Part shown: in pieces, positions 16,071 through 25,316 of the stretch
How positions within the stretch are numbered: the stretch's first letter is position 1
Layout: every line of letters begins with the position of its first letter
DNA from: an uncultured Candidatus Saccharibacteria bacterium
Lineage (GTDB): Bacteria; Patescibacteriota; Saccharimonadia; Saccharimonadales; Saccharimonadaceae
Assembly: GCA_963546555.1 (NCBI GenBank)
Contig: CAUUND010000001.1
Coordinates: 1 to 47,025, forward strand
Length of the DNA stretch: 47,025 nt
Reading direction: 5' to 3'
Made by a program: the position numbers and the translations under genes
Notes under the pieces: generated by a model
What the model was told of the DNA's origin: nothing
Seen by the model: only the letters and a program-made list of their open reading frames with translations
The model's database searches: none

Positions 16071-19052
16071 CTAGCTTGATTTAGCATTATACTTCCGGTG
16101 GTAGGCCTCGTCGTCGATCAGAGTGATTGGCACGCCGAAATAGCGGGCGAACTTCTTGCTGTTCTCATTGATGTCATCAGTACTGGAGCCGTGAACGATG
16201 ATATGTGATGGTTGCAAGCGACCGTTCCTTGCTCCGGGTTCACTTGACATGCGAGAAAGGCCGACTTCGTTATAGTTATAACGTCTGCCAAATCTATGCT
16301 TAATCTGATCAAACTTGCGAATGAGTTCGTCGCAAGTGGTAAATTGCATATTTGACATCTTCAGATTCAAACCGCCCCGTAAATAGCCATCGTTTGGCGC
16401 CATGGCGACGATGCCACCGGGCTGAATATGGTTAAATCCTAGTAGTACTCTAGAGCTTTTGTCGCTGCCGATCTGTAGATAGTTCTCGCAATGCCTCTCG
16501 TCAATACAGCTGGTTGAGATAGTCGCAGAGCCTTGGGCGGTATTCCAGACATCGGGGTCGCTAATCAGAGCACGGAAGACATCAGGACGAAGATACCGTC
16601 CGTAGATAGTGTGACTAAGCATCTTAAAAGGAGCACCTGTCAGTTTAATTACCTTGATATCGCCCTCGGGATTATCTTTCTCTATAGTGAGATGCTCTAT
16701 CCCCTCGCCCGTTGCCTCCAGATCGATCAGCGATTTATTCCAGTCATCAGTAATGTAGTGACGGAGCTTATTTTCAAGATCAGACCCCGCTCCTTCAAGC
16801 TTGGTAATCTTAGCTACACCGCTCTCATTCTCCACCGGTACACAGAGTGGTGAGCTAGCGATAGTTTGGAGGAGCTTCTCAGTAGCTTCGCCGTTATTAT
16901 ACATAGCGTTATCAGCGGACTCGCCGGAGGGTACATACTCTCCGAGCTTCTCATCAAATTCAAGCCCAAAGTTACCGAGGTCAACCTTACCAAATAAGTC
17001 TATGACTGCTTCGTCGTCCGGGGTTAAGACATGACGCTGACGGAGTATCTCCAGATCAAAGTAATTAGAGTTACGACCATTGAAATCAGACAGTATGATG
17101 AACGAGAGAGCCTTATAGGCATCTCTGACGTCATTACTCACCAGGTCGCCGGTAGCTCGTTCAGCGATGACGGCTCGGTAATTCTCCAGCTCTTCAATCG
17201 TCTTGATACCATAGGGATTGCCGGTCTTGAGGACTAAATTAAGGCTATCTCTAGTAGCTTCGTCAAGCTCACTGATATCGGTCAATTCATCAAAAAGCTG
17301 TCCGATCTCCCAGTGTTCCTCAGCCAGTACGGCATAATTGACCATTCTGGCTCGATCGCCGTCAAATAGGCTAAAACGACTGAGTGTATCTAAGTGCCGG
17401 CGCACCTGCTCAATCATTTCGTCATCCATTTCACTTAGCACTCGGTCGGCATGGCTGTCAAACAGAACTAAATCGCTAAAGTATTCATCACTCAATAGGG
17501 CGTCCTTGCCCTGGATGTGAGCATCAATCACTGATTCTCTATCCACCAAGTTAGCTAGGGGATATTTATCCAGAAAACTACTAGACCGTTGACTCAGCTC
17601 AATAAGCTCATCAACAGTAGTAATATCAGATGCATTGACGGATTTGAAGAAAATACCTAGAACACCCTTCTGCTCCCACTCTCGGTATATATCCAGTACT
17701 TTCTTTTGACCGGAACCTAGTATGTCTAAAATTTCCGGTGTCATGGGCATATTTGACAGACGTCGTACGGTCTCAATAGCTTGATCGTCGTCACACAATA
17801 TAGGTGCATTAGCCAGTTGATCATAGTAGCTTTGATCGGGGATGCCCTCCTTAAAGTACTCGCTAAAATTATTAGGTTGTTGTTGCGACTTGCTCGTGTT
17901 AACCAATAGTTGTCGAAATAAGTCAATGTCCCGATTGGTGACCGCATTGTTGTCAGCTGGAGAGATGATTTTGGATGGTCCGGCAATTTGAAGCCGTCGC
18001 CAATATTTCGTCACCTCAGACTCAGGGCAAAGATCAAGAGATATAGTATATTTAATGTTTGGAAAATGACTACCTATATATGGGTCTACGCCGGCTAGTT
18101 GGTAATATAATCGTCCGATATTATCGTCATTGATTAGTCCGGCTCGGTATAAGTTGTCCTGGAGATAAGAAATAGGGTAGTGCCGGGGATTAAGATCAGG
18201 GAAATCTTCATAGGTAGAGCTATGCTCAATGCATTTTTTCATGAAGGCATCACTTGACGCCATGTCATAGCCAATATTCTTGAATCCTCCGGCAAACTCT
18301 ACCAAGTTTTTAACGTCTCTCTTGCCGGAGACGAAGTGCTCAAAGATAACATCTTGAGCGATATCACTAATTTGGGAACCGGTCTTTTCCCTTGCTATCT
18401 CTGCTTTAATCTGCTGACCGACCTGTCGGTCGTTAAGGGCCCCATTGACGAAATAGGTATAAGGCGTCTCATCTACGTCCATTGGGAAATGGGCTAGGCT
18501 CTTCAGGAAAGAAACGGTAGTTTCAGCTAAACCATCATAGTTCTCTAGAAATAGCCGATGGCTAACCATAAACTCAGTAGCTCGATCAATGGGGGTATCC
18601 TCTGATTTAAATATGTCATCAAATCTTTTAGTATATTCAAGTTGCGCCTGAGATAGCACCTCCTTGATAGTACAGTCTCTGACTGGTTGTCTCATTGTTG
18701 TCAACTTCTCCGCCAGATCACTGCTTACCGGCTGTTCATCCTTGACGATGGCTTCGGCAAGCTTGGTGGCGGTTTCTTTTACCTCCTGCTGTTGCTCTGG
18801 CGTGAGGGTCGTCTTGATGAGTCTATTTAACGAAGTGGCGACGTCATTATACCCACCTGGCTCGTCCGTGTCTTCTCTCTTGATCCATTCGGCAAAGGTC
18901 ATAGCCATCTCGCCTATCTTTGACCGGAACGATAGTGGCTTCGGTGTATCAATTTCGGCTGATCCTTTCTTGCTCGCCGAATCCCAGTCGTTGCCATGCC
19001 CATCATTTAGCGTGTGATCATGTTGTTCTTGCCCCGGTTTTTCGTGCCTCAT
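16071..19052 (-). CDS. Large hypothetical protein, array paralogue 1; C-terminal ART-like domain (inferred)
   Basis: 993 aa, clearly homologous to the two adjacent ORFs. C-terminal LSHTI/ISTSC/YNEVGL. Confidence 0.85.
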   Translation of the reverse strand: MRHEKPGQEQHDHTLNDGHGNDWDSASKKGSAEIDTPKPLSFRSKIGEMAMTFAEWIKREDTDEPGGYNDVATSLNRLIKTTLTPEQQQEVKETATKLAEAIVKDEQPVSSDLAEKLTTMRQPVRDCTIKEVLSQAQLEYTKRFDDIFKSEDTPIDRATEFMVSHRLFLENYDGLAETTVSFLKSLAHFPMDVDETPYTYFVNGALNDRQVGQQIKAEIAREKTGSQISDIAQDVIFEHFVSGKRDVKNLVEFAGGFKNIGYDMASSDAFMKKCIEHSSTYEDFPDLNPRHYPISYLQDNLYRAGLINDDNIGRLYYQLAGVDPYIGSHFPNIKYTISLDLCPESEVTKYWRRLQIAGPSKIISPADNNAVTNRDIDLFRQLLVNTSKSQQQPNNFSEYFKEGIPDQSYYDQLANAPILCDDDQAIETVRRLSNMPMTPEILDILGSGQKKVLDIYREWEQKGVLGIFFKSVNASDITTVDELIELSQRSSSFLDKYPLANLVDRESVIDAHIQGKDALLSDEYFSDLVLFDSHADRVLSEMDDEMIEQVRRHLDTLSRFSLFDGDRARMVNYAVLAEEHWEIGQLFDELTDISELDEATRDSLNLVLKTGNPYGIKTIEELENYRAVIAERATGDLVSNDVRDAYKALSFIILSDFNGRNSNYFDLEILRQRHVLTPDDEAVIDLFGKVDLGNFGLEFDEKLGEYVPSGESADNAMYNNGEATEKLLQTIASSPLCVPVENESGVAKITKLEGAGSDLENKLRHYITDDWNKSLIDLEATGEGIEHLTIEKDNPEGDIKVIKLTGAPFKMLSHTIYGRYLRPDVFRALISDPDVWNTAQGSATISTSCIDERHCENYLQIGSDKSSRVLLGFNHIQPGGIVAMAPNDGYLRGGLNLKMSNMQFTTCDELIRKFDQIKHRFGRRYNYNEVGLSRMSSEPGARNGRLQPSHIIVHGSSTDDINENSKKFARYFGVPITLIDDEAYHRKYNAKSS

Positions 19053-25316: not shown

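Follow-up and report, generated by a model that had tools for sequence, protein, structure and literature searches.

The window analysed here, a 47,025-nt stretch of contig CAUUND010000001.1 from an uncultured Candidatus Saccharibacteria bacterium (assembly GCA_963546555.1), contains a tandem array of three paralogous genes whose products, each of about 1000 residues, very probably represent a new sequence family of the ADP-ribosyltransferase (ART) fold, with a His-Ser-Glu-type centre and joined to a large helical region. Searches of the window's own genome cover an assembly of 606 kb in 72 contigs that is 75% complete. Near-identical database proteins carry the name Candidatus Nanoperiomorbus (periodonticus). 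The genes of the array and the predicted domains are:

16071..19052, minus strand: paralogue A (P0001), 993 aa; disordered at residues 1-71, all-helical at 72-~775, ART-fold domain at 785-990
19153..22272, minus strand: paralogue B (P0002), 1039 aa, 73% identical to A
22377..25316, minus strand: paralogue C (P0003), 979 aa, 57% identical to A
16083..16700, minus strand: predicted ART-fold domain of A (residues 785-990), from the AlphaFold model and its fold matches to CteC and DarT
19165..19782, minus strand: predicted ART-fold domain of B, located by the three-way paralogue alignment
22389..23006, minus strand: predicted ART-fold domain of C, located by the same alignment

A preliminary description of this DNA had reported three co-oriented homologues, and the alignment of the minus-strand open reading frames (ORFs) of 993, 1039 and 979 aa agrees with it (57-73% identity). 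The three-way alignment shows the C-terminal ~205 residues to be nearly invariant in A, B and C, and the motifs that had been pointed out, i.e. KMLSHTIY, TISTSCIDE, RVLLGF, AMAP(N/S)DGY, YNEVGLSR and PSHIIV, were all found, invariant, within the last ~240 residues of the three proteins. The N-termini, described as disordered and variable, indeed have predicted local distance difference test (pLDDT) values below 50 for residues 1-71, and an insertion of about 40 residues is present in paralogue B. The copies are separated by gaps of 104 and 100 bp, which hold no ORF and are too short for one, in line with the earlier remark that no immunity ORFs lie between them; the distance from the last array copy to the next gene is 54 bp.

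The C-terminal domain (residues 751-993) was modelled with AlphaFold2 from a 65-row alignment, giving a confident structure (pLDDT 90.1; predicted template-modelling score 0.90), while an independent full-length model was based on 33 sequences (pLDDT 78.6; predicted template-modelling score 0.67). In a fold search independent of Foldseek (VIA wide) against 48,161 PDB representatives, the domain model reached Z>=2 with just 13 chains, nearly all of ADP-ribosyltransferase type. These include CteC (8ux2; Z 7.7, 151 aligned residues, root-mean-square deviation (rmsd) 4.3), DarT (7omv, Z 5.3; 7yk3, 5.2; 7omu, 4.7; 8baq, 4.3), Tpt1 (7yw4, Z 3.1; 7yw2, 2.8), an NAD-bound (nicotinamide adenine dinucleotide) Salmonella effector of the SopF type (7dn9, Z 2.5), the mosquitocidal toxin MTX (2vsa, Z 2.3), an ADP-ribose complex (9ld3, Z 2.2), and CopC (7xn4) and OspC3 (7wr3), both at Z 2.1. 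The uncharacterised protein CC0527 (2jqn, Z 2.5) is presumably a DUF952 protein, a family that we take to belong to Pfam's ADP-ribosyl clan. With the full-length model CteC also came first, at Z 8.2, as the sole chain of the 48,161 with Z>=8. Foldseek searches of the domain against the PDB placed CteC (E 0.069) and DarT (E 0.10) in the top rows, none of them at E<=0.001; re-scoring of Foldseek's own matches left 16 of 983 chains with Z>=2 (best Z 8.0), and all 13 entries listed from this re-scoring were CteC, DarT, Tpt1 or MTX. A fold search of BFVD returned weak giant-virus ORFans only (E>=0.0045).

By structure comparison, the predicted structure shows the split six-stranded beta core of the ADP-ribosyltransferase fold superfamily. 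Although the scores are modest, the assignment to the ART fold is credible because the match list is so specific, and the ART-like domain that had been suggested from motif order is thereby strengthened, the confident model matching almost solely ADP-ribosyltransferase-type chains with CteC and DarT in the lead. In all likelihood the C-terminal domain is an ART-fold enzyme that uses NAD, as far as can be judged from the model.

In the full-length model the ART part starts with an extra N-terminal beta-hairpin (residues 785-790 and 799-804), followed by predicted strands 1-4 (810-816, 844-851, 869-873 and 881-885), a long helix between strands 4 and 5 (907-924), and predicted strands 5 and 6 (929-933 and 950-954). 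The codons of the candidate active-site residues of paralogue A are:

16611..16613, minus strand: H814, on strand 1; proposed counterpart of CteC R65 and DarT1 H17
16509..16517, minus strand: S846-T847-S848, on strand 2
16389..16391, minus strand: D888, just after strand 4; possible counterpart of CteC D134
16266..16271, minus strand: N928-E929, at the start of strand 5, with E929 as candidate catalytic glutamate

The motif order noticed earlier, with His in place of Arg, thus falls on the predicted strands 1 (H814), 2 (STS) and 5 (E929), and the spacing from H to S, 32 residues, equals that of R65-S97 in CteC. We infer NAD use, and a proposed His-Ser-Glu active site composed of H814, S846-T-S848, D888 and N928-E929. 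A His on strand 1 is combined with a Ser-x-Ser on strand 2, and a glutamate assigned from strand order, E929, opens strand 5. Compared with the cholera-toxin-like ARTC group (R-S-E), to which CteC belongs, the strand-1 Arg is absent, as is detectable sequence homology to a member, and compared with the diphtheria-toxin-like ARTD group (H-Y-E), S-T-S takes the place of the strand-2 Tyr.

Residue conservation was counted in 62 distant homologues. F873, P948 and P975 are kept in all 62, D888, N928 and R934 in 61 each, and E929 is Glu in 60, with one Gln and one Ile. Conservation is somewhat lower on strand 2 (S846 in 57, T847 in 51, S848 in 55) and at the position of H814, which is His in 52, Thr in seven, Ser in two and Tyr in one, and never Arg. 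The Thr variants (P0198, P0199, P0205, P0208, P0212, P0220 and P0158), in which the strand-1 Thr is mostly followed by 'ID', are proteins of ~500-750 aa that retain the S, D, N, E and R. In homologue P0186 the His, the STS and the Glu are all lost, hence it is probably inactive.

CteC of Chromobacterium violaceum is the best structural match of the domain (Z 7.7-8.2, 151-155 aligned residues, rmsd 4.2-4.4). According to PMC10810742, it is a secreted effector that mono-ADP-ribosylates Thr66 of ubiquitin (PDB 8ux2, 8htc-8htf), with R65, S97 and E220 as key residues and D134 as an essential one. The order of the key residues on strands 1 and 2, after strand 4 and on strand 5 is the same in both proteins; by the CteC numbering quoted there, strands 1 and 2 are equally spaced (32 residues for R65-S97 and for H814-S846), the Asp after strand 4 lies 37 residues beyond the Ser in CteC (D134) and 42 beyond it here (D888), and both have helical material between strands 4 and 5. 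The ranges given by the aligner (residues 777-984 of the model against 49-269 of the CteC chain) agree with the CteC register if the extra hairpin is taken into account. However, the identity is only 9-12%, without detectable sequence homology, and the array family has His where CteC has its defining Arg. Moreover, one long helix takes the place of what that paper describes as a four-helix ubiquitin-binding bundle, the array domain has the additional N-terminal hairpin (785-804) and is fused behind a helical protein of ~750 aa, and the array organism has no ubiquitin-bearing host cell.

DarT1 and DarT2 form the second-best structural family (Z 4.3-5.8, 134-156 aligned residues; 7omv, 7yk3, 7omu and 8baq). 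In PMC11543638, DarT is presented as an intracellular toxin used in phage defence, and DarT1 as having H17 on strand 1, S63 where H-Y-E has its Tyr, and E152 as the catalytic residue. This His-Ser-Glu pattern provides a precedent for the array family, DarT1, counted among the ARTD enzymes, likewise having a Ser at the strand-2 position. In contrast to DarT, which is a stand-alone toxin of ~200 aa, the array domain forms the tail of a 1000-aa protein, A, B and C have no Pfam DarT match at E<=1, and no antitoxin, as in DarTG, is adjacent to the array copies. Macro (PF01661) and ARH (PF03747) domains were not found in the window's own 75%-complete genome, NADAR not having been searched. The nearest structures of the domain include both protein-targeting and nucleic-acid-targeting enzymes, and its chemistry may be either transfer of ADP-ribose to protein, DNA or RNA, or hydrolysis of NAD+.

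No significant match to A, B or C came from Pfam, NCBIfam, PADLOC or PHROGs, and the Pfam ART families, including DarT/DUF4433, gave no match to them at E<=1. Likewise, no ART chain at E<=10, and nothing significant, was obtained from the PDB sequence library with either a protein query or a 65-sequence profile. A profile of the paralogues searched against 1.84 billion representatives identified 100 proteins at E<=0.001, 41 at E<=1e-10 and nine at E<=1e-30, these ~100 proteins being clusters at 50% identity. Nearly all of these matches are confined to positions ~785-988, i.e. the C-terminal domain. The homologues range from 59 to 1961 aa in length, and in many of them the domain is internal rather than terminal. 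In a Pfam scan of 86 homologues (48 + 38) only DUF4116 was found above the cut-off, in P0182, P0237 and P0173. Where source names are given, they are 'Candidatus Saccharibacteria bacterium' and, for one cluster, 'Bacilli bacterium', so there is no known restriction of the family to epibionts. A further homologue search aimed at taxon names yielded 19 proteins, of which none carried a name. In the ESM Atlas, the C-terminal domain matched unnamed clusters only, with recognition below the usual level, and the helical region gave no usable match. Our literature searches on Saccharibacteria ADP-ribosyltransferases and on Nanoperiomorbus brought up no description of this family; PMC7427843 deals with small Sec-dependent proteins near a type IV secretion system and with a resemblance to pertussis toxin S1, not with the array's family.

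The region preceding the ART domain (residues 72-~775) is all-helical, with pLDDT values mostly of 70-95 in the full-length model, and has no recognisable family or fold. Foldseek with the full model found generic alpha-solenoids (template-modelling (TM) score of about 0.1), the VIA matches to the helical region are generic solenoid or helical proteins at Z<=7.7, below the level advised for helical proteins, and homologues of the N-terminal region form only a handful of clusters.

As had been described, a signal peptide or transmembrane segment is not evident: the top 19-residue Kyte-Doolittle window is 0.8-1.3 in A, B and C, against 2.53 in a membrane-protein control, an N-terminal hydrophobic window is present in none of 98 representatives, and any window of at least 1.6 in only one of the 98. 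No known trafficking domain was found in the 86 homologues scanned, no adjacent immunity gene in the array, and no conserved downstream partner gene was seen across the seven distinct loci described below. Polymorphic ART toxins (LXG, Rhs and those linked to type VI secretion) resemble the array family in having a conserved ART-fold C-terminal module with variable N-termini, and in being multi-copy and lineage-specific. They differ from it in that array members have neither a trafficking domain or signal (0 of 86 homologues for the domain) nor a downstream immunity gene, and the domain is internal in several array-family homologues.

The array genes are real and old, and the whole protein is under purifying selection. 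With orthologues in G459, a genome of the same genus, as reference, the ratio of non-synonymous to synonymous substitution rates (dN/dS) is 0.57 for the disordered N-terminus, 0.15-0.16 for the helical region and 0.07-0.10 for the C-terminal domain, and variability within orthogroups is almost even from one end of the protein to the other, without a hot spot. Comparison of the paralogues gives dS values of about 0.9-4; the helical part has 1.5 to >3 and the C-terminal domain 0.9-1.35, and conserved residues of the latter have identical codons in only 49-79% of cases. On account of the low dN/dS, the high paralogue dS and this limited codon identity, the near-identity of the tails is attributed mainly to purifying selection rather than to recent duplication. 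Recent gene conversion as its sole cause was considered and rejected in view of the same codon identity and dS values, although the lower dS at the 3' end may reflect some gene conversion.

A promoter-like box precedes each copy:

25346..25360, minus strand: GCTTGTGTTATTATA, of extended -10 type, 30 nt before the ATG of C
22302..22316, minus strand: the same box, 30 nt before the ATG of B
19084..19098, minus strand: GCTTATGCTATTATG, 32 nt before the ATG of A

The 15-nt consensus GCTTRTGYTATTATR has three matches against 0.00 expected, each 30-32 nt before the ATG of a copy. Its core, TGYTATWAT, occurs eight times in the window against 1.44 expected, each time just upstream of a gene, and from its sequence and placement looks like the extended -10 element of this organism. 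Since every copy has its own promoter-like box, the paralogues appear to be transcribed separately. The other sites are at 15993-16001, 25380-25388, 27184-27192, 31714-31722 and 44122-44130; the distance to the listed start codon is just 6 nt for the one at 31714 and 12 nt for the one at 44122. The site at 15993-16001 falls within the listed ORF of a methylase downstream of the array, so this gene may start ~30 nt later, with little or no leader.

The survey of copy number across Saccharibacteria called for earlier shows a patchy distribution. Counting the window's own genome, two of the 401 genomes in a phylum-wide sample were found to contain the domain, as were five of 101 genomes of the family, the other 96 having no match. 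In the genus of the window there are four to six copies per genome, varying between strains and taking up about 2% of the genome. The six copies of G459 (99% complete) make up ~17.5 kb of its roughly 800 kb; a tandem array of four occupies the same site, with the same flanking DUF6311, restriction-modification (R-M) and membrane-protein genes, and the other two are dispersed. The window's genome contains a fourth copy, split over contigs C57 (886-3639) and C11 (2-205). This copy corresponds to the 968-aa copy on contig C20 of G459, and in both cases the L20, IF3 and 515-aa genes then follow. Each dispersed paralogue of G459 is preceded on the same strand by a large ORF open at the contig start (L018, 3-3098, plus strand, on C20; L019, 1-4377, plus strand, on C16), encoding at least 1031 and at least 1458 aa, respectively; the counterpart in the window's genome is C57 1-348. 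Pfam and the PDB sequence library gave no match for these two ORFs, which resemble neither one another nor the ART family; one of the large ORFs of G459 has a weak PADLOC 'oligonucleotide cyclase' match (E 2.9e-4).

Directly downstream of the array, as noted before, is an R-M system:

14293..16016, minus strand: type II R-M pair, ThaI-type restriction enzyme and C5 methylase (Pfam and PADLOC)
14293-14934, minus strand: ThaI-type restriction enzyme
14931-16016, minus strand: C5 methylase

The adjacency itself stands, but it looks strain-specific, as in metagenome contigs of other samples the end of the DUF6311 gene (from 14247) is followed immediately by the 3' end of an array copy, without the R-M genes. 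One contig has a joint to paralogue C, skipping 8133 nt, with a short side of 114 nt (90% likeness; window 14247-22382), and two contigs have joints to paralogue B, skipping 4904 nt, with a short side of only 24 nt (90% likeness). These contigs give a weak indication that strains exist with shorter arrays and without the R-M pair, which is probably context rather than part of the array unit.

Defence-type genes adjoin three of seven distinct loci of the family, and do not adjoin the other four. One is the array site with its R-M pair, in the window and in G459. At a second locus (L019 in G459), a SoFic-like Fic gene (7309-8418, minus strand; PADLOC SoFic, E 4e-42) is next to an 860-aa copy, and at a third (L022 in genome G412) a SoFic-like gene (9437-10450, minus strand; E 5e-42) is near a 417-aa homologue, with an OLD/AriA/GajA-like ATPase at 3367-4995 of the same locus. 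SoFic has a defence role. The two Fic proteins are 30% identical to each other and stand beside ART-family members in two different genera.

The array genes behave like conflict genes, being patchy, multi-copy, strain-variable, often in accessory neighbourhoods and devoid of both an export signal and an immunity gene, and their products are probably either weapons or immune proteins. Our favoured reading, held tentatively, is that they are single-chain intracellular sensor-effectors of the immune (abortive-infection) type; we prefer it by a narrow margin to a role as exported effectors. In its favour we count the ART fold with its candidate active site, the lack of export signals and of immunity genes, the promoter-like box of each copy, the patchy and strain-variable distribution, and the defence genes beside three of seven loci. 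Each gene would encode a soluble cytoplasmic protein of ~1000 aa, in which a helical N-terminal region is joined to a C-terminal catalytic module of the ART fold. The helical region would keep the ART module inactive and would recognise an invader-derived trigger. With NAD+ bound, the module would act either as an ADP-ribose transferase on a macromolecule or as an NAD+ hydrolase. Different triggers would be covered by the paralogues, which are old and have separate promoter-like boxes. For autoinhibition and an immune role, which we infer, a comparison can be made with DSR2, a single-chain NAD-targeting defence protein that has a SIR2 effector domain at its N-terminus and a large helical sensor. 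The array proteins resemble it in their length of ~1000 aa, in combining one NAD-using effector domain with a large all-helical region, and in having no partner gene; they differ in that the effector domain of DSR2 is SIR2, at the N-terminus, and no sequence or fold link was seen to the helical region of the array.

A number of observations weigh against this reading or against parts of it. Four to six paralogues in a genome of 0.6-0.8 Mb are unusual for a defence gene; PADLOC 2.0 gave no family at E<=1 for A, B and C or for the homologues at loci L020 and L022; and no family match was obtained in phages and plasmids (tblastn) or in IMG/VR (two queries). Four of the seven loci lie among housekeeping genes (ribosomal, tRNA-modification, replication or repair). 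The low mean dN/dS of the helical region (0.15-0.16) means that there is no average arms-race signal, the Fic neighbours may be effectors as well as defence genes, and CteC, the best structural match, is a secreted effector. At the level of the domain, the fold scores stay modest throughout (Z<=8.2, Foldseek E>=0.07, TM-score 0.31-0.36), values of Z 7-8 being common, the His is absent in 10 of the 62 homologues, and the equivalence with CteC residues is based on order, spacing and strand position, not on superposition.

It is also possible that the proteins are exported effectors, which would leave the cell by a Sec-independent route, such as a type IV secretion system, and ADP-ribosylate some component of the actinobacterial host or of a competitor; an immunity gene, of which there is none, would then be unneeded, since the producer would lack the target or the enzyme would stay inactive until delivered. 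The ART fold with its conserved active-site residues would suit such a role, as would the fact that an obligate epibiont devotes about 2% of its genome to four to six copies, and Fic-domain neighbours are typical effector enzymes too. The closest structure, CteC, is itself a secreted effector, and the N-terminal ~60 residues, conserved in the paralogues yet disordered, could be an export signal. Saccharibacteria have a conserved type IV secretion system with unknown substrates, as discussed in PMC7427843. On the other hand, secretion or trafficking domains, signal peptides and transmembrane segments are missing from the 98 representatives or the 86 scanned homologues, a link to secretion genes is found at none of the seven loci examined, and at least one cluster of homologues carries the name 'Bacilli bacterium'. 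Furthermore, the absence of a match in 96 of 101 family genomes means that the family cannot be core to the epibiotic lifestyle. The more specific proposal, that Sec-independent effectors, for instance substrates of the conserved type IV secretion system, are delivered into the actinobacterial host cell, with each paralogue ADP-ribosylating a different target and so reprogramming or disarming the host, is somewhat unlikely in our estimate; if true, these would be the first identified enzymatic effectors of Saccharibacteria.

An endogenous regulator, in which the ART domain reversibly modifies the cell's own proteins or nucleic acids, for instance on entry into dormancy, with the helical region as a scaffold, would account for purifying selection over the whole protein, for its cytoplasmic features and for the housekeeping neighbours at four of seven loci. 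A patchy, strain-variable and multi-copy distribution is nevertheless atypical of housekeeping regulators, and no reversing hydrolase of the Macro or ARH type was found in the window's 75%-complete genome, the 99%-complete relative not having been searched; we consider such a role improbable. Similarly improbable is a shared fold only, i.e. a non-catalytic binding module or an enzyme of different chemistry, which could be read from scores in a range where a common arrangement is possible (Z<=8.2, no Foldseek match at E<=0.001), from the lack of a sequence-level link to any ART family, and from the replacement of the His in 10 of 62 homologues and of His, STS and Glu in P0186, but which does not fit with every interpretable match at Z>=2 being an ART-type chain, nor with the near-invariant S846, D888, N928, E929 and R934 lying where the catalytic residues of ARTs lie.

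The molecular basis of the action of ultra-small epibionts on their hosts, and of their phage resistance, is largely unknown, and the family provides a concrete, testable enzyme candidate, of which the predicted NAD-dependent centre (H814/S846/D888/E929) can be mutated. It takes up ~2% of the 0.6-0.8 Mb genome of a parasitic mouth bacterium, under purifying selection yet in strain-variable copy number. To the ADP-ribosyltransferase superfamily it very probably adds a sequence family not covered by Pfam, NCBIfam or PADLOC, in which a putative His-Ser-Glu centre is combined with a large helical partner region that is not recognisable.

Upstream of the array, the nearest gene is divergently transcribed and encodes the protein that served as hydrophobicity control:

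25420-26127, plus strand: 235-aa membrane protein with N-terminal hydrophobic helices (Kyte-Doolittle 2.53)

This protein has a weak PHROG match (E 3.4e-5). A 168-aa ORF at 25320-25826 on the minus strand was rejected as a gene, since it is of low complexity, has no family match and is antisense to the convincing membrane-protein gene, and it is regarded as a shadow ORF.

Elsewhere in the window, ORFs of 344, 334, 616 and 278 aa at 10411-12388 (minus strand), 42259-44109 (minus strand) and 2705-3541 (plus strand) have no Pfam match, and the first two (344 and 334 aa) have no PADLOC match either. A 412-aa protein encoded at 654-1892 on the minus strand has an N-terminal HTH_38 domain (E 2e-13) and no further Pfam match; its gene is near tRNA-Gln (2581-2655, plus strand) and could be a tRNA-associated transposase-like or integrase-like gene. 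Finally, a cluster at 33440-35448 encodes two ASCH-domain proteins, a GNAT acetyltransferase and a DUF2268 predicted Zn-protease, and has a local GC content of 0.44 versus about 0.52.

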